From contig CM059431.1 of the NCBI GenBank assembly GCA_030390025.1, forward strand, positions 107,014,001-107,078,000: a stretch of DNA of 64,000 bases, read 5' to 3'. Positions 4,081 through 59,084 of the stretch are shown one piece after another; the first letter of the stretch is position 1, and each line of letters begins with the position of its first letter. Source of the stretch: Squalus acanthias. Taxonomy: Eukaryota. The notes under the pieces were generated by a model. The model saw only the letters and a list, made by a program, of their open reading frames with translations. It was not told where the DNA came from and ran no database searches. The position numbers were made by a program, and so were the translations under genes.

Positions 4081-5839
4081 AAAAAAGAAAGTCTTACAAT
4101 TCTATAGCGCCTTTCATGACCTCAGGACGTCCCAAAGTCCTTTATAGCCACTTTTGAGGTGTAGTCACTGTTGTAATGTAGGAAATGCGGCAGCCAATTT
4201 GTACACAGCAAGCTCCCACAAACAGCAATGTGATAATGACCAGATAATTTGTTTTAGTGGTGTTGATTGAGGGATAAATATAGGCCGGACACCGGGGATA
4301 AAACTTCTACTCTTCTTCGAACTAGTGCCATGGGATCTTTTACATCCACCTGAGAGGGCAGACGGGACCTCAGTTTAACGTCTCATCTGTAAGACGGCAT
4401 CTCCCAATAGCGAAGCACTCCCTCAGTACTGCATTGGTGATTCAGTCTAGATTTTTGTGCTCTAGTCTTCAGGAGGGTATAAGGTTTCCAAAATTTGCAG
4501 ATCCCCAAAACCTAAGGAAAAAGGACTTTGGAACTACCTCAGAGTGATAAAAATGCATTTGGGCCTAAACCTAAGAGACTGTAAGACCAAAACCCAAGTT
4601 TTGGCATTTTAAAAGCATGTCTGGGCCTGTGAAGGGAGAAAAGGCTGTGAAGGAAGTTGGGGTCGACCTCTGCAAAAGCAGTTTTGGGTATTGCAGTTAA
4701 ATTGCATTGTCTGGGGAATCGGGATGACCTCACTCTAGCCCCAGCAAGCATTAACATTTTGACAATAGACCCTAGGAGGAGACAACCCCACCCAAAACAA
4801 CAGGTCCCATCAAACCGATTACAGAACCCATTAAAGACATGCATAAAGCAAATATTCGATCGAAGTCCCAGGCCCAGTCAAGAAAACCAAAACATGAGGA
4901 CAATTCAAACTCCGATTAAACAACAGATCGACAGGATGGAGCTATTTTGAAACCACTTCACATTTACAAAACCAGTTAACACGCTAGTAAAGTCGTTACT
5001 GTTAACGAGGTCTTACAATGACCGGGATTTGATTTGGTTTTGATAAGGCCACTTCAATTTAGTATAATTGAAGGCCCAACAAGAAAAGAAGTGACAACAG
5101 TTCAAGTTCAACAGAAGGCAGTTCTGCAGTTTTGGAGTTCAATTTGAAAGCCTGTTTTTCAGCAGAAGTCAGTGCTGGAATTACAGGGTTCAGGAGAAGC
5201 AAGTTGGGCAGTTAAAGAAGACAGTTCAGTAAGAAGGGAGTTCTCCAGTTCTCCAGTAAAACAGTTCAAGTTCAATAAGCAGGCAGAATGCAGTTTCCAC
5301 AGTTCTGCAAAAAAGGCAGTTCCACAGCTCGGAAGAAGACAGTTTAAACAGAAAGCAGTTCAACAAAGAAAGCCAACAGCTCCAGAAGTTGGCCGACATG
5401 CAAGAAGAGACCAGAGCGACCGCCTCAGTGACCATCAGACACCTCGCGGCAACAAGGGCCTTACGAAACCTTTTACTCAAAAGACTCTAAACCCTAACTC
5501 TCGTTTGGTGAGCATTATCCCTGGTTCTCCAGAGTCCAACCTAGCTTGTGAAGTGGGATTGGGAGGGGTAAAGTATTCTTCTAATGTTATTTCCCTCGCG
5601 TGTACCGAAGTGTTCCCCACCTTTAGAGTGTTAAGAGTGTTTGTGTTGTGTTTTACTTTCTTGAATAAAAGTCAAAATTCTTTCATCGAAACCTGTTGTC
5701 TACTGCATCTTTGTTCACAACCCCCAAATAAGTCCAAGGTCTAGAACCAGGGGCGTGGGAGCGATTCGAACCTGCTCACTGAGTCAGAGGTGAAGCTGAC
5801 CCTACCACACCACCCCCTACAAGGGGGACGTGAATCTAC

Positions 5840-5974: not shown

Positions 5975-6394
5975 AACATAAGAACCTAAGAATATAAGAA
6001 TTAAGAGCTGGAGCAGGCCATTTGGCCCCTCGAGCCTGCTCCGTCATTTAATAAGATCATAGCTGATCCGATTTTGGCCTCAACTCTACTTTCCTTCCTG
6101 TTCCCCATAACCCTTGACTCCCCTGTTGCTCAAAAATCTGTCTATCTCAGCCTTGAATATATTCAATGACTCAGCTTCCACAGCTCTCTGGGGTAAAGAA
6201 TTCCAAAGTTTCACGACCCTCTGAGAGAAGAAATTTCTCCTCATCTCCATCTTAAATGGGCGACCCCTTATTCTGAGACTATGCCCCCTCGTTCTAGATT
6301 CCCCCACGAGGGGAAACATCCTCTCAGCATCTACCCTGTCAAGCCCCCTCAGAATCTTATATGTTTCAATATGATCACCTCTCATCCTTCTAAA
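5975..6394 (-). mobile_element. CR1 LINE 3' end, 5'-truncated
   Basis: ORF 6086-6412 contains RRMRGDHIETYKIL...RTRGHSL...FFSQRVV, followed by the CR1 3' UTR and a short-repeat tail. Confidence 0.9.
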
Positions 6395-6447
6395 GAGAGA
6401 GAGAAGTCGCACAACACCAGGTTATAGTCCAACAGATTTATTTAATT

Positions 6448-6485
6448 TTACAAGCTTTCGGAGCTGTCGCTCCTTCGTCAGGTAA
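6448..6485 (-). ncRNA. Minimal type I hammerhead ribozyme-like motif (left arm)
   Basis: Reverse complement of 7591-7628. Confidence 0.7.
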
Positions 6486-7039
6486 GTTACCAATGAGAGA
6501 ATCTCCCAGAATTCACAATTTAAACCCAGACAAAATCTATTCACATTATTCGCTACAACAAAGAGCACAGCCAAGACAATGAGATGTGTCCCAGGGGGTC
6601 CAACGTGTCAAACCACCTGCTGGCTGCATATCCTGTCAATTTGTGTTCTTGTGTTAGCCTTTTTAAAAAAAAACACCAAAAAAAACCAAAAAAAAAAACA
6701 AAAAAAACACCTGGGAAGACCGGCCATGATGTCAAGTCACGTTCTGTATCGTGACATGAACCCGATATCGCGATTGAGGCCATCCTCATGAGTGCGGAAC
6801 TTGGCTATCAGTTTCTGCTCTATGATTTTGCGCTGTCGTGTATCTCGAAGGCCGCCTTGGAGAACGCTTACCCGCAGATCCGAGGCTGAATGCCCCTGGC
6901 TGCTGAAGTGTTCCCCGACTGGGAGGCAACCCTCCTGCCTGGCGATTGTTGCGCGGTGTCCGTTCATACGTTGTCTCAGTGTCTGCATGGTCTCGCCGAT
7001 GTACCATGCTCTGGAGCATCCTTTACTGCAACGTATCAG

Positions 7040-7351
7040 GTTGTCTACCTGATACGTTGCAGTAAAGGATGCTCCAGAGCATGGTACATCGGCGAGACCA
7101 TGCAGACACTGAGACAACGTATGAACGGACACCGCGCAACAATCGCCAGGCAGGAGGGTTGCCTCCCAGTCGGGGAACACTTCAGCAGCCAGGGGCATTC
7201 AGCCTCGGATCTGCGGGTAAGCGTTCTCCAAGGCGGCCTTCGAGATACACGACAGCGCAAAATCATAGAGCAGAAACTGATAGCCAAGTTCCGCACTCAT
7301 GAGGATGGCCTCAATCGCGATATCGGGTTCATGTCACGATACAGAACGTGA
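7040..7351 (+). pseudogene. Penelope-like GIY-YIG endonuclease domain, 5'-truncated and mirrored on the minus strand at 6737-7041
   Basis: VVYLIRC...AWYIGET.QTLRQRMNGHR...VGEHF...EQKLI..F...GLN matches the PLE GIY-YIG motif set. Confidence 0.9.
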
Positions 7352-7590
7352 CTTGACATCATGGCCGGTCTTCCCAGGTGTTTTTTTTGGTTTTTTTTGG
7401 TGTTTTTTTTTAAAAAGGCTAACACAAGAACACAAATTGACAGGATATGCAGCCAGCAGGTGGTTTGACACGTTGGACCCCCTGGGACACATCTCATTGT
7501 CTTGGCTGTGCTCTTTGTTGTAGCGAATAATGTGAATAGATTTTGTCTGGGTTTAAATTGTGAATTCTGGGAGATTCTCTCATTGCTAAC

Positions 7591-7628
7591 TTACCTGACG
7601 AAGGAGCGACAGCTCCGAAAGCTTGTAA
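7591..7628 (+). ncRNA. Minimal type I hammerhead ribozyme-like motif
   Basis: TTAC-CTGACGA-A-GGAGC-GACA-GCTCC-GAA-AGCT-T-GTAA gives stem I TTAC/GTAA, a CUGANGA core, stem II, GAAA and a palindromic AGCT stem III. Hammerheads are known from PLE pseudo-LTRs. Confidence 0.72.
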
Positions 7629-8099
7629 AATTAAATAAATCTGTTGGACTATAACCTGGTGTTGTGCGACTTCTCATTTTTGTCCACCCCAGTCCAGCGC
7701 CGGCATCTCCACATCATGGCCTTCTAAAGAGAACAGTGGGTGATATGGAGAGGAGCAGTCGTGAGTGGTTCTAACTAACGCATACGCCTAGAAATTGCAA
7801 TTGGCATAAAGCTTGATGCTTTACTGGCAGTGCTGTGTACTGTTTATTTACATTCCACTTCCTCACACAAACCGAATGGCTGAATGAAGAAATTTCACTG
7901 TGAAAGTGAATGTGCTCAATTTATCTTGGGTCAATTAAGCCAGCAGATTGGGTACTCAAGAGAGAAGCACCCATAATTATAGTTATAATGCAATGCTGGT
8001 GCAATGTGTTTATTGGGCACAAATGGAATAGACGTTACTGCAGAGGCTGCAATGGGAAAATTGGAGTCTTTATTTGAATGCGAGCAGCATCAATTTTTC

Positions 8100-16112: not shown

Positions 16113-19100
16113 CAGGAGGTAAATTAAAAAATAGGACCTCAAAGGTAGTAATCTCAGGATTGCTACCAGTGCCACGTGCTAGTCAGTGTAGAAATAGAAG
16201 GATATTTCAGATGAATACGAGGCTAGAGGAATGGTGCAAGGGGGAGGGATTCAAATTCCTGGGACATTGGAACCGGTTCTGGGGGAGGTGGGACCAGTAC
16301 AAACTGGACAGTTTGCACCTGGGCGGGACCGGGACCGATGTCCTTGGGAGAGTGTTTGCTAGTGCTGTTGGGGAGGGTTTAAACTAAAATGGCAGGGAGT
16401 TGGGAACCTGTGCAGGGAAACAGAGGAAAGGGAAGCAAGGATAGAAACAAAAGACAGGAAGGAGAAAAGCATTAGTGGAAGGCAGTGAAATCAAGGCTGT
16501 AAATCAAACAGGGCTACAGTAAATAATAATTTTAAAAGGACTAAAAGTGATAAAAAAAACAAGCCTGAAGGCTTTGTGTCTTAATGCGAGGAGCATTTGT
16601 AATAAGGTGGCTGAATTAGCTGCACAAATATATGTAAACGGATATGATATAATTGGGATTACAGAGACATGGCTCCAGGGTGACCAAGGCTGGGAATTCA
16701 ACATCCAGGGGTATTCAATATTCAGGAAGGACAAGCAAAAAGGAAAAGGAGGTGGGGTAGCATTGCTGATTAAAGAAGAGATTATCACAATAGTAAGGAA
16801 GGATATTAGCTCTGATGATGTGGAATCTGTATGGGTAGAGCTGAGAAATACCAAGGGGCAGAAAACGTTAGTGGGAGTTGTATACAGACCCCCAAACAGT
16901 AATGCTGAGGTTGGGGATGGCATTAAATGGGAAATTAGAGATGCGTGCAATAAGGGCACAGCAGTTATCATGGGTGACTTTAATCTACATATAGATTGGG
17001 CTATCCAAATTAGTAACAATACTGTGGAGGAGGAATTCCTAGAGTGTATACGGGATTGTTTCCTGGACCAATATGTCGAGCAACCAACTAGCGACCAGGC
17101 CATCTTAGACTGGGTATTATGTAATGAGAAAGGGTTAATTAGCAATCTTGTTGTGCGAGGCCCCTTGGGGAGGAGCGATCATAATATGATAGAATTCTTC
17201 ATTAAGATGGTGAGTGAAATAGTTGACTCAGAGACTAGGATCCTGAACTTAAATAAAGGAAACTATGATGGTATGAGGCGCGAGTTGGCAAGGCTGGATT
17301 GGGGAACATTACTTAAAGGGTTGATGGTAGATTGGCAATGGCACACATTTAAAGATTGCATGGATGAACTACAGAATTTGTTCATCCCTTTTTGGCATAA
17401 AAATAAAACAAAAAAGGTGACTCAACCGTGGCTAACAACGGAAATTAGGGACAGCATAAGATCCAAGGAGAGGACATATAAATTGGCCAGAAAAAGCGGC
17501 AAACCTGAGGATTGTGAGCAATTTAGGATTCAGCAAAGGAGGACAAAGGGATTAATTAAGAGGGGGGAAATAGAATATGAGAGTAAGCTTCCAGGGAACA
17601 TAAAAACTGAATGTAAAAGCTTCTATAGAGAAAAAGATTGGTGAAGTCAAGCATAGGTCCCTTGCAGTCAGAATCAGGGGAATTTATAATGGGGAACAAA
17701 GAAATGGCAGACCAATTAAATACATACTTTGGTTCTGTCTTCACAAAGGAGGACACAAATAACCTCCCAAGAGATGTCGGGGAACATAGGGTCTAATGAG
17801 AAGAAGGAATTGAATGAAATCAGGATTTGTAGGGAAATGGTGTTAGGCAAATTGACGGGATTGAAGGCCGATAAATCCCCAGGGCCTGATAATCTACATC
17901 CTAGGGTACTTAATGAAGTGGCCCTAGAAATAGTAGATGCCTTGCTGGTCATCTTCCAAAATTCTATAGACTCTGGAACAGTTCCCATGGATTGGAGGGC
18001 AGCTAATGTAACCCCACTATTTAAAAAAGGTGGCAGAGAGAAAACGGGGAATTATAGACCGGTAAGCCTGACATCGGTAGTGGGCAAAATGCTAGAGTCC
18101 ATTATAAAAGATGTAATAGCAGAGCACTTGGACAACAATGACAGGATCAGACAAAAGTCAACATGGATTTACAAAAGGTAAATCATGTTTGACTAATCTA
18201 CTGGGACTTTTTGAGGATGTAACTGGTAGAATAGATAAGGGTGAACCAGTGGATGTGGTGTATTTGGACTTTTAGAAGGCTTTCGATAAGGTCCCGGATA
18301 AGAGATTAGCATGCAAAGTTAAAGCACATGGGATTGGGGGTAAGGTACTGACTTGGATAGAGAACTGGTTGGCAGACAGGAAGCAAAGAGTTGGAATAAA
18401 TGGATCTTTTTCCGAGTGGCAGGCAGTGACTAGTGGGGTACCGCAGGGATTGGTGCTAGGACCCCAGCTATTCACAATATATATTAATGACCTAGACAAG
18501 GGAACTAGATGTAATATCTCCGCGTTTGCAGACAACACAGAGCTGGGTGGGTGTGTGTGCTGTAAGAAGGATGCAGAGAAACTCCAGTATGATTTGGGCA
18601 GGTTGGGTGATTGGGCAGATGCATGGCAGATGCAGTATAATGTGTATAAATATGAGGTTATCCACTTTAGTGGCAAAAACAGGAAGACAGATTATTATCT
18701 GAACGGCAATAGATTTGGAAAAGGGGACGTGCAACAAGACCTGGGTGTCCTTGTGCACCAGTCGCTGAAGGTAAGCATGCAGGTGCAGCAGGCGGTTAAG
18801 AAGGCAAATGGTATGTTGGCCTTCATAGCGAGAGGATTCGAGTACAGGAGCAAGGCTGTCTTGCTGCAGTTGTACAGGGCCTTGGTGTGACCACACCTTG
18901 AGTATTGAGTGCAGTTTTGGTCGCCTTATCTGAGGAAGGATGTTCTTGCCATGGAGGGAGTGCAGCGAAGATTCACCAGACTGATACCTGGGATGGCAAG
19001 AATGACGTATGAAGAGAGATTGGTTCGATTAGGCTTATATTCGCTTGAGTTTAGAAGAATGAGAGGGGATCTCATTGAAACTTATAAAATTCTAACAGAC

Positions 19101-19450
19101 TAGACAGACTAGATGCAGGAAGGAAGTTCCCGATGGCGGGGGAGTCCAGAACCAGGGGTCCCAGTCTAAGGATAAGGGGTAAGCCATTTAGGACTGAGAT
19201 GAGGAGGAATTTCTTCACCCAGAGAGTGGTGAACCTGTGGAATTCTCTACCACAGAAGGCAGTTGAGGCCAATTCATTAAATATATTCAAGAAGGAGTTA
19301 GATATATTTCTTATTGCTAAAGGTATCAAGGGATATGGGGAGAAAGCAGGGACAGGGTACTGAATTTGGATGATCAGCCATGATCTCATTAAATGTCAGA
19401 ACAGGCTCGAGGGGCTGAATGGCCTACTCCTGCTCCTATCTTCTATGTTT
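16113..19450 (+). mobile_element. CR1 LINE: C-terminus of ORF1 SGNH esterase, frameshifted ORF2 (APE + RT) and 3' UTR
   Basis: ORFs 16097-16387 (KVVISGLLPVP...DSLHL), 16547-17644 (NARSI, GITETW, GDFN, SDHN), then 17729-18181, 18369-18890, 18909-19103 and 19133-19363. Confidence 0.95.
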
Positions 19451-32635: not shown

Positions 32636-32860
32636 GTGCCTTCACCTGCCTCGGCCCTAAGCTCTGGAATTCCCTCCCTAAACCTCTCCGCTTCTCTACC
32701 TCTCTCTCCTCCTTTCAGACCCTCTTTAAAACCTTCCTTTTTGGCCAAGCACCTGTCCTAATATCTCCTTATGTGGCTCGGTGTCAAAGTTTGTCTGATA
32801 ACCCATCCTGTGAAGCGTCTTGGGATGTTAAAGGTGCTATACAAATGCAGGCTGTTGTCG
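32636..32860 (+). mobile_element. L2 LINE 3' fragment
   Basis: AFTCLGPKLWNSLP..LR...SLSSFQTLFKTFLF, then the tail. Confidence 0.8.
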
Positions 32861-32917
32861 CATATGGTTATTGGTGGATAATATCATGTGCCAGGAAAGC
32901 GGATGACACCCAATTTA

Positions 32918-33415
32918 CAACAACAACAACTTGTATTTGTATAGCGCCTTTAACATAGTAAAACGTCCCAAGGCGTTTCACAGGAGTATTATAAGACAAA
33001 AAAATTGACACTGAGCCACATAAGGAGAAATTAGGGTAGATGACCAAAAGCTTGGTCAAAGAGGTAGGTTTTAAGGAGCGTCTTAAAGGATTAAAGAGAG
33101 GTAGCGAGGCGGAGAGGTTTAGGCAGGGAATTCCAGAGCTTAGGGCCTAGGCAACAGAAGGCACGGCCACCAATTGTTGAGCGATTATAATCAGGGATGC
33201 TCAAGAGGGCAGAATTAGAGGAGCGAATGGGACTTGGTGCGAGTTAGGACACTGACAGCCGAGTTTTAGATCGCCTCAAGTTTACGTAGGGTAGAATGTG
33301 GGAGGCCAGCCAGGAGTGCGTTGGAATAGTCAAGTCTAGAGGTAACAAAGGCATGGATGAGGGTTTCAGCAGCGGATGAGCTGAGGCAAGGGCGGAGACG
33401 GGTGATGTTCCGGAG
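32918..33415 (-). mobile_element. L2 LINE 3' fragment, internally deleted
   Basis: ORF 33266-33454 (LRNITRLRPCLSSSAAETLIHAFVTSRLDYSNALLAGLP) is a typical L2 C-terminus. (ACA)n tail. Confidence 0.88.
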
Positions 33416-40249: not shown

Positions 40250-40594
40250 GTGGTGCACATAGGCATCAACGATATAGGTAAAAAACGGGATGAGGTCCTA
40301 AAAGCAGAATATAGGGAGTTAGGAGGTAAATTAAAAAAGAGGACCTCAAAGGTAGTAATCTCAGGATTACTACCAGTGCCACGTGCTAGTCAGAGTAGGA
40401 ATAGGAGGATATTTCAAATGAATACGTGGCTAGAGGAATGGTGCAAGGGGGAGGGATTCAAATTCCTTGGACATTGGAACCGGTTCTGGGGGAGGTGGGA
40501 CCAGTACAAGCGGGATGGTCTGCACCTGGGCAGGGCCGGGACCGATGTCCTAGGGGGAGTGTTTGCTAGTGCTGTTGGGGAGGGTTTAAACTAA
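40250..40594 (+). CDS. CR1 ORF1 SGNH/GDSL esterase-like domain, 5'-truncated
   Basis: VHIGINDI (block III GxND) ... DGLHL (block V DxxH). Confidence 0.85.
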   Translation: MVHIGINDIGKKRDEVLKAEYRELGGKLKKRTSKVVISGLLPVPRASQSRNRRIFQMNTWLEEWCKGEGFKFLGHWNRFWGRWDQYKRDGLHLGRAGTDVLGGVFASAVGEGLN

Positions 40595-43145
40595 AGTGGC
40601 AGGGGGTTGGGAACCTGAGCAGGGAGACAGAGGAAAGGGAAACAAGGATAAAAGCTAAAGACAGGAAGGAGAAAAACAAAAGTAGAAGGCAAAGAACTCA
40701 ACAGTTTAAATCAAACATGGTCACAGTAAATAATAATTCATATAGGTCTGAGAGCGTTAAAAAAACAAGCCTGAAGGCTTTGTGTCTTAATGCAAGGAGC
40801 ATTCGGAACAAGGTGGATGAATTAGCTGCGCAAATAGAGGTAAATGAATATGATTTGATTGGGATTACAGAAACATGGCTCCAGGGTGGCCAAGGCTGGG
40901 AACTCAACATCCAGGGTTATTCAATATTTAGGAAAGATAGGCAAAAAAGAAAGGGAGGTGGGGTAGCATTGCTGGTTAAAGAGGGGATTAACACAATTGA
41001 AAGGAAGGATATTAGCTCTGATGATGCGGAATCTGTATGGGTAGAACTGAGAAATAACAAGGGGCAGAAAACGTTAGTGGGAGTGGTATATAGACATCCA
41101 AACAGTAATACGGAGGTTGGGGATGGCATTAAAAGGGAAATTAGAGAAGCATGCAGTAAGGGCACAGCAGTCATCATGGGTGACTTTCATTTACATATAG
41201 ATTGGGCTAACCAAATTAGTAAAAATACTGTGGAGGAGGAATTCCTAGAATGTTTACGAGATGGTTTTCTGCAACAATATGTCGAGGAACCAACCAGAGA
41301 TCAGGCCATCTTAGACTGGGTATTATGTAACGAGAAAGGATTAATTAGCAATCTTGTTGTACGAGGCCCCTTGGGTCAGAGTGATCATAATATGATAGAA
41401 TTCTTCATTAGGATGGAGAGTGAAGTCGTTGAATCAGAGACTAGGGTCCTGAATTTAAATAAAGGAAACTACGATGGTATGAGGCGCGAGTTGGATAAGA
41501 TTGATTGGGGAATGTCACTCAAGGGGTTGACGGTGGATAGGCAATGGCAAACATTCAAAGACTGCATGGATGAACTACAGAATTTGTTCATCCCAGTTTG
41601 GCACAAGAATAAAACAAAAAGGGTGACTCAAACATGGCTAACAAGGGAAATTAGGGATAGCATAAGATCCAAGGAGAGGGCATATAAATTGTCCAGAAAA
41701 AGCGGTAGCCCTGAGGATTGGGAGCAGTTTAGGATTCAACAAAGGAGGACAAAGGGATTAATTAAGAAGGGGAAAATAGAATATGAAAGGAAGCTTGCTG
41801 GGAACATAATAACTGACTGTAAGAGCTTTTATAGATATGTGAAGAGAAAAAGATTAGTGAAATCAAGTGTAGGTCCCTTGCAGTCAGAAGTGGGGGAAGT
41901 TATAATGGGGAACAAAGAAATGGCAGACCAATTAAATGCATATTTTAGTTCTGTCTTCACAAAGGAGGACACAAATAACCTCCCAGAGATGTTGGAGAAC
42001 ATACGGTCTGATGAAAGGGAGGAACTGAAAGAAATCACTATTTGCAGGGAAATGGTGTTAGGGAAATTGACGGGAATGAAGGCCGATAAATCCCCAGGGC
42101 CTGATAATCTACATCCTAGGGTACTTAAGGAAGTGGCCCTAGAAATAGTAGATGCATTGCTGATCATCTTCCAACATTCAATGGAATGTGGAACTGTACC
42201 CATGGATTGGAGGGTAGCCAATGTTACCCCACTATTCAAAAAGGGTGGTAGAGAGAAAGCAGGGAATTACAGACCGGTAAGCCTGACATCGGTATTGGGG
42301 AAAATGCTGGAGTCCATTATAAAGGATGTAATAGCTGAGCACTTGAAAAACAGTGACAGGATCGGACAAAGTCAACATGGATTTACAAAAGGTAAATCGT
42401 GCTTGACTAATCTACTGGAATTTTTTGAGGATGTAACTGGGAAAATAGATAAGGGAGAACCAGTAGATGTGGTGTATTTGGACTTTCAAATGGCTTTCGA
42501 TAAGGTCCCGCATAAGAGATTAGCATGTAAAGTTAAGGCACATGGGATTGGGGGCAAGGTATTGACTTGGATAGAGAACTGGTTAGCGGACAGAAAGCAG
42601 AGAGTAGGAATTAATGGGTCTTTTTCCGAGTGGCAAGCAGTGACTAGTGGGGTACCGCAGGGATCTTTCCTTGGACCCCAGCTATTCACAATATACATTA
42701 ATGATCTAGATAAGGGAACTAAATGTAATATCTCCAAGTTTGCAGATGACACAAAGCTGGGTGGGAGTGTGTGCTGCGAGGAGGATACTGAGAAACTCCA
42801 GGATGATTTGGACAGTTTGGGTGAGTGGGCAGAAGCGTGGCAGATGCAATATAACGTGGATAAGTGCGAGGTTATCCACTTTGGTGTCAAAAACAGAAAG
42901 GCAGACTATTATCTGAATGACAATAGATTGGGAGAAGGGGAAGTGCAACGAGACCTAGGTGTCCTTGTGCACCAGTCGCTGAAAGTAAGCATGCAGGTGC
43001 AGCAGGCGGTGAAGAAGGCAAATGGTATGTTGGCCTTCATAGCGAAAGGGTTTGAGTATAGGAACAGGGATGTCCTGCTGCAGTTGTACAGTGCCTTGGT
43101 GAGACCACACCTTGAGTACTGTGTGCAATTTTGGTCACCTTATCT

Positions 43146-44865
43146 TGTAGAATTCGCAATATAATCGCGATTTTATAAATAAGGAGAAAACACATAGTTT
43201 CGTTCGAACAGCTTTATTTCAGCAGAATGCTGTCAGGTTTTTCAAAGTGGACACAAGCAGCCTGTAAAATGGCCGCCATGCCTCGTGGCAGAACATTCTA
43301 GACTTTTCGATAAGCAGACAAGATGGCGTTCCAATAAGCATTTGTGCGAGATCGGACAAGACTCAGCACATTTGAGATAAATCACAAGACATAATGGGTT
43401 TGCATTTTACACATAAATACTGGAATCGGTCTCCCAGGTGCGAATAAGGGCTATTGTACAGAGCGATCAAGAACCCATCCAGAGACATTAATATGCAAAA
43501 TCCCCACGACTCTATGATGAGAGAGCCGTTTGCGGGTAGTTACAGAAACATTTGGAAGCCCCAAAAGCCCTCCAGGGAGAATACTGACCAGTTACACAAT
43601 GGGAGAAGTATTAACGGGTACTCAGGCAGTTACAAGTATCACCGAAACCCATTAAACGGAGATCACCCTATACAAGAAGTTTGGGCGCCAAAACCCTAAC
43701 AAAAGAAAAGACATTAAGATTGGGCGGGAAGAGGGGAATTTCAGCACTATAACTGTAAGCTCCAACCGTCCATCTTTCTCTTATCCTCTTGCCTCTTCGC
43801 CTGCGACGCTGTCTTTTGACTCTTGCCGCTTGACTCTTTCTTCGCCTGCGACTCTGACTCTTGCATCTGCCTCTTGCTGCTCGACTTGCTGGAAGACTAT
43901 CGAACTTTCTGATCCGCCAGGATCAACCTCGTGGCTTGCCGCGAAGATCTGTGTGGAACCGGGCTGTGAAGCATTGAAACGGGCACACCATCCCGAGAAG
44001 TCGGTAAACGGTGTTGGAACCGAAGGCCCGAGATGAGATGAGATGAGATGAGATGAGATGAGAAGAGAAGAAGACGACCATACGTATCGCCACGGTCAGT
44101 AAGCCCCGACCGTGCCTGTAGGTCGAATAGACACTTTCCTTGCCCAGGAAGACTATCTTTTGAGTTTTACAGAACTGGCATCGGAAGACCATTCTTCGAG
44201 TTTTATCGCATCGGGGCGAGGGCACAGGAAGACTATTTTTCGAGTCGTGTAAGAACTCCGAGGACAACACAGATCTTCATGACAGCAGACGGTCCAGCCT
44301 GCTAGCCGGAGCAGAAACGAGTAAACAAGTGGGGTACAGAGACCCCTGATCAACACGTGGGTGATCAGGTGCTGCGGTAAAAACATCCGAGCAGAGTTTT
44401 CGGAATTCTCCGAGTTATCACGAGTGGTGAGCATGAGTCTCGATCCTACAAATCTAGTTTAGAGCAGGTATTGATAGGGGAGGGTTTAAGTTTTAAGGAT
44501 AACTGTAATGTGTGCCCCCATTTACGATGTGTCGTTCGTTCCTCGTTTCCCTAAAATTAGTTACATAACTGCGTGTAAGATTGTACTGTCATTAATCTGT
44601 GCTTATGACATGTATTTCGTAATCTCGAATAATATGCAATAAAGATTTTCCATTTCGTACCATTCAACCGGGTCGACCTGAGTTTTCTCTCCATTATTTT
44701 CTCGCATCTAAGTCCAGTGTCAGAACCGTAAGGGCGAGTGGGTCGAACCACTCACAGGTGTCTAGTGCTCCCAGACTGGCTGGAGACCAGAACAGGCAAC
44801 AAGGCCTAACCTCGCACTAGCACCCAGGCTGAGCACAGAGCCACAGGCGTGTCCAAACCCTTACA
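43146..44865 (+). mobile_element. Solo LTR (family C, 1720 bp), 4-bp TSD ATCT
   Basis: TGTA...TACA termini, ATCT at 43142-43145 and 44866-44869, AATAAA at 44638 and no coding content. Confidence 0.92.
44030..44062. repeat. (GAGAT)n microsatellite within the LTR
   Basis: Directly visible. Confidence 0.9.
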
Positions 44866-45399
44866 ATCTGAGGAAGGATGTTCTTGCCATGGAAGGAGTT
44901 CAGCGAAGATTCACAAGGCTGATACCTGGGATGGCAGGAATGACATATGAGGAGAGATTGGGTCGATTGGGCTTGTATTCGCTGGAGTATAGAAGACTGA
45001 GAGGGGATCTCATCGAAACATATAAAATTCTGACAGGTCTGGACAAACTAAATGCAGGAAGAATGTTCCTGATGGTCGGAGAGTCCAGAACCAGGGGTCA
45101 TAATCTAAGGATAACGGGTAAGCCATTTAGGACAGAAATGAGGAGGAATTTCTTCACCCAGAGAGTGGTGAATCAGTGGAATTCTCTACCACAGAAGGTA
45201 GTTGAGGCCAAGTCATTAAATATATTCAAGAATGAGTTAGATATATTTCTTAAAGCTAAAGGTATCAAGGGATATGGGGAGAGGGCAGGTACAGGGTACT
45301 GAGTTTGGATGATCAGCCATGATCTCATCGAATGGCGGAGCAGGCTCGAGGGGCCGAATGGCCTACTCCTGCTCCTATCTTCTATGTTTCTATGTTTCT

Positions 45400-51373: not shown

Positions 51374-52786
51374 CGAGTGACTGGAAGTTATGCCTCACTG
51401 CACCCCTGGTGCCCCAGGAGTTTGATGCCCCAGTGAGCTATTATTATTTCAGCCACTTGAGCTCGATTAAAAAAAAATGTTCCATTGTAAATATATAACC
51501 ATCAGATCACTGTTAGATTATTCACTTGTTTATTATCTGTGTCATAAATTTCTTTCATATTTTAACCTTTGAATTAGATCTGCTGTGATACTCTTTTAAG
51601 ACTGAATTCATACCTAAAATTCAGCCCCGGGGTCGGGAATCGGAGTCCCCCCCCCCAGCCCTTGTAGGGGGTGGTGGTTTGTGTCAGCTTTACCTCTGAC
51701 TTCTGAGCGGTTCGAATCGCTCCCACTCCCTTGGTTCTAGACCTTGGACTTATTTGGGGGTTGTGATACAAAGGTGCAGCAGACAACTGAGTTTGATGAA
51801 AGAACTTCAATCTTTATTAAAAGGTAAGACACAAATAATAACACTCTTAACACTCTAAAGGTGGGGAACACTTCGGTACAGGCGAGGGAAATGACAGTAG
51901 AACAATTACTTCACCCCTCCCAACCCCACTTTACTAGCTAAGTTAGGTTTTGAAGGACCAGGGATAATGCTCACCAATCCTTTGACAGTTGGGCTAAATC
52001 GCGGTTTTGGTGTTCGCTGTTTATGGCGGTTAGTGTCTGCCGTACCCCGTACGCAGTAGAGGACTTCACCTGAGTCTCTGGTCAGTCTTCGCGAGTCCGC
52101 TGATGCGGTAGGATGTCGTTTTGGATTTATCTGGTGAGTACCGAATTTCTTTGGTTTAGCAGTAGGGTTTAGAGTCTTTGGGGAAAATCTTACCCAGGGG
52201 TAAGTCAGGAGTAGTTTGTAGTGTGGAAACTTTGTGGTTCTTCGGGTTTTCTTCCCTGGAGTTGGTCTTTGTTGGTCGCGGTGGCCTGCTATTACCCGGT
52301 CAGTTGGGGGTAATATACGATTGTTGGTTTTGTGAGGCCTTTGGTTTCCGTGATGGCTTTAGGCCTTGTTTAGTGTGTCGGTCGACTTCGTGGAGCCGTC
52401 GGTGACTTGTTGCTGCTTGTTGCTCCGGGTGACTGTGTTGGGACCATTGTTGGAGGTCCGTCGAGGTGGTATCTTCACGAGCTGGACTCAGGTGTGTCTG
52501 AGTGGTGAGCGATGCCGACTCGCTTCCAGCTTGGGTTTCCTTCTTCTGATGACCACCGGTTGCGACTGACTGCTTGCTCCCAACTTTGAACTGTTGTAAC
52601 TCCTTGATGGGCCTTCAATTATACCAAATTGAAGTGGCCTTATCTACCCGCCAAATCTACTCAGTTCATTGTCTGGTTTTTGGCGGGCTCGTAAATCGGT
52701 AATGAATTACTAGCACGTTAACTGGGTTTTTAACAAATTGAGAAGTCGCACAACACCAGGTTATAGTCCAACAGCTTTATTTGAAA

Positions 52787-52823
52787 TCACAAGCTTTCGG
52801 AGCGTTGCTCCTTCGTCAGGTGA
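52787..52823 (-). ncRNA. Minimal type I hammerhead-like motif in the inverted pseudo-LTR
   Basis: Reverse complement of 54523-54559 with one loop change. Confidence 0.68.
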
Positions 52824-52992
52824 AGTGAAGAGATGCATATAGGCACAGCATATATAGTCAGAGAACAATGCCAGATGATTACAGTTAATCTTTCTAACTG
52901 CCCTTTATCACACCTCGGCAGAGAGATAATCACGGCAATCAAAGGTGTGGATGGTGTCCAAACAGGTCAGTCAGGAAAACATTACATCAAAG

Positions 52993-54190
52993 ACCAGTTT
53001 TTTACCCAAACACACGGAACAGCCATGGGGACCAAATTCGCACCCCAATACGCCAACATCTTCATGCACAAGTTCGAGGAAGACTTCTTCGCTGCACAGG
53101 CCCTCCAACCAACGCTATACACCAGATACATCAACGACATTTTCTTCCTATGGACCCACGGCGAAGAATCACTGAAAAGACTACACGATAACATCAACAA
53201 GTTCCATCCCACCATCAAACTCACCATGGACTACTCCTCAGAATCGGTTTCATTCTTGGACACACGAATCTCCATCAAAGACGGACACCTCAGCACTTCA
53301 CTCTACCGCAAGCCCACGGACAACCTCACGATGCTCCACTTCTCCAGCTTCCACCCTAACCACGTTAAAGAAGCCATCCCCTATGGACAAGCCCTGCGAA
53401 TACACAGGATCTGCTCAGATGAGGAGGAACACGATGGACACCTACAGACGCTGAAAGACGCCCTCGTAAGAACGGGATATGACGCTCGACTCGGGCCACA
53501 GCGAAAAATCGCATAGACCTCCTCAGAAGACAAACACGGGACGAAACCAGCAGAGTACCCTACGTCGTCCAGTACTTCCCCGGAGTGGAGAAACTACGCC
53601 ATGTTCTTCGCAGCCTTCAACATGTCATCGATGACGACGAACACCTCGCTAAGGCCATCCCCACGCATCTACTACTAGCCTTCAAACAGCCGCCTAACCT
53701 CAAATAGACCATCGTTCGCAGCAAATTACCCAGCTTTCAGGAGAACAGCGACCACGACACCACACAACCCTGCCACGGCAACCTCTGCAAGACATGCCAA
53801 ATCATCAACACAGATACCATCATCACACGTGAGGACAAAACCCACCAGGTACATGGTACATACTCATGTGACTCGGCCAACGTCGTCTACCTCATACGTT
53901 GCAGGAAAGGATGCCCCGGAGCATGGTGCATTGGCGAGACCATGCAGACACTGCGACAACGTATGAACGGACACCGCGCAACAATCGCCAGGCAGGAGTG
54001 TTACCTCCCAGTCGGGGAACACTTCAGCAGTCAAGGACATTCAGCCTCTGATCTTCGGGTTAGCGTTCTCCAAGGCAGCCTTCGAGACACACGACAACGC
54101 AAAATCGTCGAGCAGAAACTGATAGCCAAGTTCCGCACCCATGAGGACAGCCTCAACCGGGATCTTGGGTCATGTCACGCTACATGTAAC
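52993..54190 (+). pseudogene. PLE reverse transcriptase C-terminal half, Cys-rich linker and GIY-YIG endonuclease (disrupted)
   Basis: QTHGTAMG...RYINDIF (YIDD variant), FLD, LYRKPT, PCHGNLCKTC (Neptune-type linker), NVVYLIRC...IGET. Frameshift near 53490 and stop at about 53705. Confidence 0.92.
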
Positions 54191-54191
54191 C

Positions 54192-54230
54192 CCACCTGAC
54201 GTAGAGTCATCCAGACTCGAGTCGTCGTTG
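54192..54230 (+). ncRNA. Degenerate second hammerhead-like motif
   Basis: CTGACGT-A-GAGTC-ATCCA-GACTC-GA: stem II is intact but the core is mutated. Confidence 0.45.
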
Positions 54231-54522
54231 GCTTGTTCTCTCTACCCAGATGCGGCTGGACCTGCTGTGATTTCCAGCAAAAAAAGTTTTTTTGTTTTCC
54301 ATACAGACCCCAGCATCTGCCACATCTGACCCCTTGTGACCCCACTTCATGGTCTTTGATGTAATGTTTTCCTGACTGACCTGTTTGGACACCATCTACA
54401 CCTTTGATTGCCGTGATTATCTCTCTGCCGAGGTGTGATAAAGGGCAGTTGGAAAGATTAACTGTAATTATCTGGCAGTGTTCTCTGCCTATTTATGCTG
54501 TGCCTATATGCATCTCTTCACT

Positions 54523-54559
54523 TCACCTGACGAAGGAGCAGCGCTCCGAAAGCTTGTGA
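54523..54559 (+). ncRNA. Minimal type I hammerhead ribozyme-like motif
   Basis: TCAC-CTGACGA-A-GGAGC-AGC-GCTCC-GAA-AGCT-T-GTGA. Confidence 0.72.
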
Positions 54560-55731
54560 TTTCAAATAAAGCTATTGGACTATAACCTGGTGTTGTGCGA
54601 CTTCTCACATTTGTCAACCCCAGTCCAACACCGGCATCTCCACATCAGGGTTTTTAACAGACATTCAATCTCACCCATTGAACATGGCCTTATCTACCCG
54701 CCAAATCTACTTAGTTCATTGTCTGATTTTTGGCGGGCCTGTTACCAGTAACTGCTCTGTAAGTGTCAAATGGGTTTTGGGATGGTTTGCATCCTGTCGA
54801 TCTCCTTGGCTGATCACTGGTGATTGGTTTCGTGTTTTGGGTTTCTAGGCTGGACTCAGTCTTTTCTATAGCCTGGTCCTGAGTGATTTGTATTATGCAT
54901 GTTTTCTGATGGGCCCTATAATCGGTTTGATGGGGCCTGTTGTTTTGGGTGGGACTGTCTTCTCCCAGGGTCTATTGTCAAAATGTTAATGCCTGCTGGG
55001 GCTTGAGTAGGATCATCCCGGTTCCCCAGACAGTGCAATTAACTGCAATAACCAAAACTGCTTTTACAGAGGTCGAACCCAACTTCCTTCACACCCTTTT
55101 CTCCCTTTACAGGCCCAGACATGTTTTTAAAATGCCAATACTTGGCTTTTGGTCTTAAATTCCTTAGGTTAGGCCCAAATTCATTTTTATCACTCTGAGG
55201 TAGTTCCAAAGTCCTTCTTTCCTTAGGTTTTGGGGATCTGTAAATTTTGGAAACCTTACACTCCCCCATGGCTTGGAACCGCCCGCCCCCCCCCCCCCCC
55301 AAACCATCCTGGGCCCAGCACCTACCTGGTCCAGTGGCCACCTGGTCAGCGTTCCCCACACAACTGGAAGCCAGCCTGTCAGGCAGGCTGACTTCCGAGC
55401 GGGGCACCCACCCTTTCCGCCGCACGCACGATGTGGATTCCCGCCATCTCCTGGATCCGCCCCCCCCGCACTGTGCGGGCAGGTCCCGGGAAAACCCAGC
55501 CCAATGTAACAGTTCCTAACAGCACTGCACCAGTGCCAGCCTTGATTATGTGTTCAAGTTTTATATAGCAAGGGGCTGGAAACCACAGCTTCTGACTCCG
55601 GAAGGCAGGCATGCTGTTCTTGAATCAAGCTGTCACGCTCAGTGTCAGCTGAATTGCATGGGCTGGCAAGTAAACCAGCACACATAACTTTCACAGAAAG
55701 TATCTTCGTATTGCATACTAATGATATGTTG

Positions 55732-56864: not shown

Positions 56865-58099
56865 GGGGTACGGTAGCATAGTGGTAATGTTACTGGACTA
56901 TGAGTTCAAATACCACCACGGCAGCTGGGGAATTTAAATTCAGTTGATTAAATAAATCTGGAATAAAAAGCTAGGGCACGATCTTGCCAGCCCTGGAGAG
57001 GTGGGTTTGGAGGCGGGACTGCCGGGAAAATGGCAGAATCTGGGGGCGGGTGCCCGTCCCGCCCCCAACCCGCCTCCGTGCCATCTTCCCAGGAGGCGGG
57101 TAGCCGACCCACGCCGGGTCCCGTCTCCTGGAGGTGGAAAGGGGATTACAGCCACTTAACAGCCTGTTAACAGGTAGTTAGCAGGCAGTTAAGAGGATTA
57201 TCCCCATTTTTCCCACAGAGGCGCGGGCTTCCCGACATCGGGAAACCTCGCCAGGGTCACCGAGGCGAGCAGTGGGTCTGCGGGGGTCGGAGGGGTGCAA
57301 AAGTGCGCTGTGCAGGTGAGTGATGGGTGCAAGTGTGGAGAGGTGAATATGTGAGGTGAGTGGAAAGTGGTTACTTACTTTTGTTTCTTCCTGCAGGCTT
57401 CAACAGTTGGGGATGTGGAGACTCTTGCATCTCAATGGCAGAGATGACAGATGGCAGCTGCATTCTCCAATGCAACAGCCATCTAATTTCTGCTCACAAA
57501 AGAGGTTTGAGGAATCTTGAATACCAGAACTCATCAAACAACAGAGAGTGTCAGTGTTTGACAGCTTCACAAAGCTGTCTAACGATGACAATCCATCTGT
57601 CAAAAATTTTTGACAGATGAAATGTCATACGCTGACATTCTCTGTAACCGGCTTCCCCTTAATTGGCCTGCTAAGCCTGTTGGGCGGGCTTAACAAAGTC
57701 AATCAAGGGAAAATAGCGTGGGTTGGCCACAAGTCGATGGAGGCGGGACTAAAACCCGACAAGCAGCAGTCCCGCCTCCAACGTGCCCCCATTGACAAAA
57801 TCGCCCCCCAAGTATCAGTAATAGTGACCATGAAACTATCGGATTGTCGTAAAAACCCATCTGGTCCACTAATGTCCTTTCGGAAAGGAAATCTGTCGTC
57901 CTTACCCGGTCTGGCCTATATGTGACTCCAGATCCACAACAATGTGGTTGACTCTTAACTGCCCTCTGAAATGGCCTAGCAAGCCACTCAGATGTATTTA
58001 AGAAGGCGGCTGACCACCACCCTCTCGAGGGAAATTAGGGATGGGCAATAAATGCTGGCCTTTCCAGCGATGTCCACATCCCATGAATGAAAAAAAAAT
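56865..58099 (+). mobile_element. tRNA-derived SINE with a LINE-family-2 3' tail, split by a MITE at 56974-57808
   Basis: A box TAGCATAGTGG, B-box-like GAGTTCAAATAC and tail AAGAAGGCGGCT.ACCACCACC...GGGATGGGCAATAAATGCTGGCC followed by an A run. Confidence 0.8.
56974..57808 (+). mobile_element. Harbinger-type MITE (copy 1)
   Basis: Termini GGGCACGATCTTGCCA / TGACAAAATCGCCCC. Imperfect TSD CTA/CAA. Confidence 0.82.
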
Positions 58100-58265
58100 A
58101 CCAGATAAAGATGCACAATTCGAATTTAGCCCAGTATTTTATGAGCTCTGTTTATTCATAACTAATCTCTTGCAGCTTCTTTTTTTCAAAATGACATTCC
58201 AGAGCTTTGGAGCAATCTTATAATCATGAATATTGAAATCAAATTATATAATAAACAACAACCTC

Positions 58266-59071
58266 GGGCTGATTTTGCCAATGGGGAGCTTTTGGATGCG
58301 GGACTCCCACTTGTCGGGTTTCAGTCCCGCCTCCATCGACTTGTGACCAAACCATGCTATTTTCCCTTGATTGACCTTATTAAGCCCGTGCAGTGGGCTT
58401 AGCAGGCCAATTAAAGGAAAGCCGGTTACAGAGAACGTCAGTGTGTGTCGTTTCATCTGTCAAAAATTTTGACAGATGAATTGTCATCGTTTGGCAGCTC
58501 TGTGAAGCTGTCAAACACTGACATTCTATGTTGTTTGATGAGTTCTTGTATTCAAGACTCATGAAACCTCTTTCTTTAGCAGAAATTAGATGGTTGTTGC
58601 ATTGGTGAATGCAGCAGCCATCCGTCATCTCTGCCGGTGCGAAGCGAGACTCTCCGCATCCTCAACGATTGAAGCCTGCAGGAAGAAACAAAGGTAAGTA
58701 AACATTTTCTATCACTTTCCACTCACCTCACATACTTACCTCTCCACACTTGCACCCATCACTTACCTCCACAGTGCACTTTTGCACCCCTCCGACCCCC
58801 GCAGACCCACTGCTCGCCTCGCTGACCCTGGCAGGATTCGGAGCCTTCGGGAAGCCCGCACTTGTGTGGGTAAAATGGGGATAATCCTCTTATCTGCCTG
58901 TTAACTACCTGTTAACAGGCAGTTAAGTGGCTGTAATCCCCTTCCCGCCTCCAAGGAGACGGGACCCGGCACGGAGGCGGGTTGGGGGCAGGATGGGCAC
59001 CCGCCCTCAGATTCTGTCATTTTCCCGCAGTCCCGCCTCCAAACCCCCCCAGGGCTGGCAAGATCGCGCCC
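58266..59071 (-). mobile_element. Harbinger-type MITE (copy 2, inverted), TSD CTC
   Basis: Reverse-complement homolog of 56974-57808. CTC at 58263-58265 and 59072-59074. Confidence 0.85.
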
Positions 59072-59084
59072 CTCTTTTTTTTTG

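Follow-up and report, generated by a model that had tools for sequence, protein, structure and literature searches.

Described Penelope-like insertions

The general layout of Penelope-like elements (PLEs), as given in passages of Craig et al. (2021, PMC8557442), includes an inverted, 5'-truncated copy adjoining the 5' end of the element, a tail of 30-40 bp that is often present at one end only, plus a GIY-YIG endonuclease at the C-terminal end, with a CX2-5CxxC linker. In these passages the linker together with the C-terminal endonuclease marks Neptune/Nematis, the linker is absent from Penelope/Poseidon, and the features of the PLE cycle behind tandem and inverted structures are called 'still undefined'. 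For Pen2a_Av and other endonuclease-bearing (EN+) PLEs of Adineta vaga, the relevant part of PMC3846280 describes an inverted copy placed head-to-head at the 5' end, an optional one-sided tail of 31 bp, target duplications of 8-10 bp and junction palindromes of 18-38 bp at the pLTR end. For PAc, a Poseidon element of Anolis carolinensis, the enzyme, a predicted dimer, cuts and extends both strands and has two start sites for reverse transcription, which bound the tail; the tail is also bounded by the two ends of genomic copies, and a hammerhead lies in the terminal repeat (Frangieh et al. 2024, PMC11167929, in part). Minimal hammerheads of metazoan PLEs are described in sections of Cervera and de la Pena (2014, PMC4209133). 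Neptune and Poseidon are given as the most widespread PLE groups of vertebrates in a portion of a recent preprint (bioRxiv 10.64898/2026.07.22.740005). In the literature searched, with older Penelope papers poorly covered, neither palindromes of Neptune elements in sharks nor twin priming of PLEs was the subject of any paper found; copies that are palindromes throughout may appear in the figures of PMC3846280 and PMC8557442.

The insertion at 6386-7732 of the Squalus acanthias stretch analysed here (64,000 nt, hereafter the window) has the published PLE layout, a truncated copy in inverted orientation followed by a truncated copy in sense orientation and a tail, all enclosed by the duplication, in an unusually symmetric form. 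It shares the inverted truncated copy at the 5' end with the general PLE layout and its head-to-head orientation with the A. vaga elements, from which it differs in tail (44 nt) and duplication (13 nt) length, in that the whole 1.27-kb insert is palindromic, and in that the fold point lies inside the endonuclease coding region instead of at a pLTR end. It also differs from the Neptune/Nematis elements described, having lost the reverse transcriptase (RT) and the linker by truncation. The two arm ends bound the tail as the ends of PAc copies do, and cutting of both strands with two RT start sites would fit them, but PAc belongs to another clade, Poseidon having no linker. The palindrome is very probably a real and young 5'-truncated insertion of an endonuclease-bearing PLE of Neptune/Nematis type, a degree of confidence that applies to its identity and not to the mechanism by which it arose.

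Structure of the palindrome

The left arm (6401-7041, minus strand) is the tail-less 3' end of a 5'-truncated PLE, with an endonuclease fragment, 3' UTR and hammerhead region, and is the reverse complement of the right, sense arm (7047-7675, plus strand) in the inverted-repeat comparison. The arms are 99.8 % identical, differing by one substitution (6490 vs 7586) and by a C/A tract that is 12 nt longer in the left arm, with no difference in the innermost 342 nt. They form the longest and best-matched of the 16 inverted repeats listed for the 64-kb window. The arm coordinates and both differences had been read from the letters alone in an earlier, sequence-only reading and were borne out by the comparison, as was its one-sided extension of about 45 nt, which is the 44-nt PLE tail at 7676-7719 (plus strand), present on the right side only and common to the second copy of the family described below (54608-54647).

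A perfect 13-nt direct repeat (6386-6398 and 7720-7732) encloses the insert, in agreement with the duplication first noted. When 20,000 pairs of positions were drawn at random from this window, 7 had a flanking match of at least 13 nt and none a match of 10-12 nt; the 7 are read as repeat pairs. On the left, two additional nucleotides (GA, 6399-6400) separate the duplication from the arm and sit in a short (GA)n run made by the end of the duplication and the start of the arm. This run (6394-6405) holds three GA units more than direct priming on the TCTC of the element predicts; a short template copied repeatedly during priming, or later slippage, could have produced them.

Adjoining the insertion is an older LINE 3'-end fragment (6086-6398, minus strand) with 74-76 % matches to the LINE 3' ends at 19050-19341 and 44990-45280. 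It ends at the insertion and has no continuation in the right flank. Pfam gave no family for this fragment, which we take to be of CR1/L2 type.

At the centre, 8 of the 9 nucleotides at 7040-7048 are the same as at 53882-53890 in the second copy. The sense copy is taken to begin at 7040, since 7040-7046 match the second copy, which is intact there, and the 5' end of the inverted copy lies 7 nt further into the element, with a GT/AC dinucleotide common to both. The 5 nt between the arms (7042-7046, plus strand), described earlier as a spacer, are therefore present but not extra; they are native element sequence kept in the sense copy only, with the GT/AC dinucleotide as a 2-nt microhomology at their edges. 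The insert is fully palindromic only because its two copies were truncated 7 nt apart. The microhomology was considered as evidence for a fold-back origin and rejected, as a stem of at least 2 is available at 660 of the 1573 positions.

A second copy in the window

An older copy of the same family lies at 52724-54659 (plus strand) with remains of the RT, a CX4CxxC linker and the endonuclease, within a 12-nt duplication. It consists of an inverted arm of 258 nt (52739-52996), a sense copy about 1,600 nt long (approximately 52997-54607) and the tail, which extends to 54647. Its arms have 8 differences in 258 nt and are 1,353 nt apart, and its coding region is broken by a short deletion with a frameshift and by stops. 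Both PLE copies in the window are truncated and carry an inverted 5'-truncated copy, a one-sided tail and a target duplication. The 3' UTRs of the second copy and the palindrome resemble each other over approximately the last 130 nt only, and the second copy is therefore assigned to another subfamily. Outside its duplication, a 75-nt direct repeat (85 % alike) is found at 52614-52688 and 54664-54738, part of which matches 5015-5072 in reverse; this is probably another repeat family into which the second PLE landed.

Endonuclease and family assignment

The last 103 codons of the PLE open reading frame, encoding the GIY-YIG endonuclease, are present in the sense orientation at 7040-7351 (plus strand) with no stops or frameshifts and 90 % identity to homologue P0001. 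Region 7040-7348 scored 23.3 bits against Pfam PF01541 (cut-off 22.6) and is followed by a stop codon at 7349-7351. The corresponding minus-strand fragment (6746-7039) lacks the Val-Tyr of the first motif; it was 91 % identical to P0001 over 98 amino acids in tblastn, and its Pfam GIY-YIG match (E 0.016) was under the cut-off. All 8 aligned endonuclease sequences have two cysteines between VYL and WYIG (C7 and C11) and the histidines H47 and H53; the motif definition is from passages of PMC8557442, and the choice of H47 and H53 as its two histidines is our own.

The 153-codon open reading frames reported earlier for both strands do exist, at 6890-7351 (plus) and 6737-7198 (minus), and start with ATG. 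Their first 50 codons are the antisense frame of the endonuclease, which is open in the second copy too. In the minus-strand frame VDNLIRC replaces VVYLIRC, so that the tyrosine of the first motif is gone. As judged from these alignments, both frames appear to be chimeric by-products, 50 antisense codons joined by accident to an endonuclease fragment. The ATG at the end of the tail was considered as a start of the PLE reading frame; the two translated 3' ends matched only P0014, which we read as the model of a host protein that has captured repeat sequence, and no PLE N-terminus was found in them.

With the endonuclease region of the second copy, 32 longer proteins were retrieved among 126 candidates. 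The best homologues (81-90 % identity) are annotated in sharks, and several have an RT domain (PF00078). P0001, which carries this domain, was 90-94 % identical to the RT and endonuclease of the second copy and 90-91 % identical to the palindrome arms; the two window copies are about 90 % alike in the endonuclease. The second copy has the RT upstream of the endonuclease (Pfam RVT_1, E 0.00047, under the cut-off), as has P0001, and the truncated palindrome copy lacks it. Together with the tail and the duplication, the Pfam match and the homologues uphold the original description of a Penelope-like insertion with inverted structure.

A CX4CxxC linker precedes the C-terminal endonuclease in the second copy and in 5 of 6 aligned homologues, P0002 having Tyr in the last position. 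The presence of this linker argues against the Penelope/Poseidon clade. The palindrome copy lost RT and linker by truncation, and its placement in Neptune/Nematis, indicated by the linker, rests on the second copy and the homologues. Between palindrome and second copy, 16 synonymous and 10 non-synonymous differences were counted in 96 codons, too few to carry weight.

The family is very abundant: over the element, the summed depth of contigs was 4-5 orders of magnitude above that of the unique right flank, a depth sum that is not a copy number. In metagenomes an exact 32-nt pattern was found at 0 loci, and a metagenome protein scan gave one relative among 488 candidate stretches (L001, 50 % identity), which was without a long inverted repeat. 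Several shark gene models with names of host genes (cytochrome P450, septin, XRCC5 and others; P0008, P0011, P0014, P0023, P0027 and P0031) contain pieces of the endonuclease of this PLE, likely through annotation capture or exonisation.

Hammerhead motifs

Each arm of the palindrome carries a predicted minimal type-I hammerhead, which the sequence-only reading had overlooked, at 6448-6485 (minus strand) in the left arm and 7591-7628 (plus strand) in the right arm, identified by pattern search, fold and alignment. The minimal pattern gave 4 matches in the window (0.02 expected), all inside the two PLE copies, the second copy having two motifs. Helices I and II are predicted to fold, and helix I has a compensatory change from T-A to C-G between the two copies (one event). 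The core boxes and the 4-bp helix I are like those of the metazoan PLE hammerheads described in parts of PMC4209133, and the extra base before the G10.1-C11.1 pair and the palindromic 15.2-16.2 agree with the same source. The dual hammerheads of Schistosoma, also described there, lie on opposite strands 100-700 bp apart, compared with approximately 1.1 kb here. The opposite-strand pair of the palindrome cannot form a sense dimer. A loose hammerhead pattern, with 14 matches against 6.4 expected, revealed no additional family, and no hammerhead was among 18 Rfam matches up to E 10.

Age and reality of the insertion

The insertion appears to be young: its arms show 1 substitution in 629 nt, those of the second copy 8 in 258 nt, its duplication is perfect and its frame unbroken. 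The same features support the recent date proposed earlier, with arm identity an unclean clock that gene conversion or assembly polishing can also produce.

Near-perfect palindromes are a known artefact of long-read sequencing, and a fold-back read or an assembly error, with one arm absent from the genome, would account for this one. The read check was made with assembled contigs, not raw reads, of four sequencing runs (20 listed). None of the 32 pieces listed, of more than 168,000 in the contigs of the four runs, crosses the centre or the left junction, which for the centre agrees with an artefact. At the right junction a 494-nt contig (7688-8181) bridges 32 nt of tail, the duplication and the unique right flank with 0 differences in runs X1 and X3, which are one sample and may be the source of the assembly; its depth is similar to that of the next flank contig. 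The contig is unbroken at the duplication, which hints at a sample without an empty allele. No empty-site joint was found among 15 of 325 joints in the contigs, which by itself proves nothing. A depth hole at 7734-7830 in X5 was discarded as evidence, 55 % of that run being covered. Besides the bridged junction, an artefact is opposed by the mirror ending exactly at the edge of the tail, the differing flanks, the 13-nt duplication, the two places at which the arms differ, and the older second copy, which repeats the plan with 8 arm differences; an artefact is accordingly considered very improbable. Had two elements inserted independently at one site in opposite orientations, the abundance of the family would have provided the material, but a single duplication surrounds both arms with none at the centre, and the arms are 99.8 % alike compared with 90 % between the endonucleases of the window copies, so that such a coincidence is hardly credible.

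Origin of the inverted arm

There is roughly an even chance that the insert arose by two priming events, one on each target overhang, with the cDNAs joined head to head. The endonuclease of the element would make a staggered cut of 13 nt, after which the two target strands would each prime reverse transcription, one from the outer and the other from the inner end of the tail. A single short or broken RNA would serve as template for both cDNAs, which would reach approximately the same 5' end; the 2-nt microhomology would then allow their 3' ends to be joined head to head, with filling in. The outer edge of the tail is where the sense copy ends in both window copies, and the inverted arm starts at the inner edge or no more than about 9 nt from it. 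The stop of the inverted arm at the inner edge fits a second priming event, and it is at this position that the related enzyme starts reverse transcription in vitro, the in-vitro data coming from a Poseidon-clade element that is different from this family. The unequal arms of the second copy (258 and approximately 1,600 nt) were also counted for two priming sites. Short matches of the target end with the element at the left junction (GAGA/TCTC in the palindrome, ACA/TGT in the second copy) fit two priming events, being only 3-4 nt long and uncontrolled. The fuller proposal, that the locus is a relic of a double-primed integration unique to PLEs, in which a dimeric enzyme uses both target strands and two start sites bounding the tail to copy one RNA into cDNAs fused head to head, is put forward tentatively.

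Alternatively, a single truncated first-strand cDNA could have bent back on itself at its 3' end, with a stem of 2 bp and a loop of 5 nt, been extended as far as the tail and been joined to the left target overhang. Such a fold-back accounts for the symmetry directly and more cheaply, the 5' ends being just 7 nt apart and the 5-nt loop of hairpin size, and all private sequence is common to both arms. Palindromes at inverted junctions are also frequent in the part of PMC3846280 concerned with them, where they are read as self-priming. Against this, the 2-bp stem is at chance level, a further reason is needed why, in both copies, the copied arm goes no further than the inner tail edge, and the 1,353-nt gap between the arms of the second copy would demand a long-range template switch; a fold-back origin is possible but somewhat doubtful. 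The earlier view that the whole truncated cDNA was inverted stands in so far as a fold-back fits the product; it is one of two mechanisms that do, the stop at the tail edge fitting a second priming. Two independent truncations within 7 nt would be expected in about 1-2 % of cases (own arithmetic, uniform over 0.6-2.6 kb), a rarity that counts against two priming events and implies that the ends were coupled by the same RNA end or that the locus was picked for its symmetry. Two window copies are too few to separate two priming events from fold-back.

As a single locus the palindrome matters little, being a published insertion layout in clean and symmetric form, and its interest is as a data point on the mechanism of the inverted structures of PLEs. 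If double priming is true, the abundant young copies in sharks would hold the junction statistics needed to settle how inverted PLE structures form, and would seed long perfect palindromes at a large scale.

Potential transcripts and function

A transcript across the insert is predicted to form a hairpin with 628 pairs between the arms and a 5-nt loop (RNA or DNA fold), so that the hairpin of about 630 bp anticipated from the letters holds as a predicted fold; double-stranded RNA, a cruciform and fragility would be hypothetical consequences of it. This hairpin, the ATG-started 153-codon frames and matches of Rfam microRNA models to the palindrome centre would be in line with a locus for a functional hairpin RNA or with a nuclease gene expressed on its own. 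All 18 Rfam matches were, however, below the gathering score (best 90 bits vs 140) and reflect the perfect stem, for which reason a microRNA precursor was rejected, and the first 50 codons derive from an antisense frame that the second copy has open as well. The element is young and high-copy. No host exon was recognised among the 37 open reading frames of at least 130 codons in the window, most of which are LINE or PLE pieces by inspection, and a DNA-mode search, a weak test, gave no RNA run holding this stretch. A functional locus of either kind is thus regarded as most improbable. The insertion most likely does nothing and was dead on arrival; it lacks RT, can produce no transposase and is incapable of mobilising itself.

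Other repeats in the window

An older inverted repeat at 56962-59083 has arms of approximately 850 nt (84 % alike) and a 458-nt middle with a piece of dispersed repeat; no hammerhead pattern and no duplication were identified for it. An inverted pair of short dispersed-repeat copies (81-86 % alike) with a 64-nt gap is present at 32636-33164. The 864-codon open frame at 40570-43164, with endonuclease-like and RT-like regions, is by inspection a young LINE.
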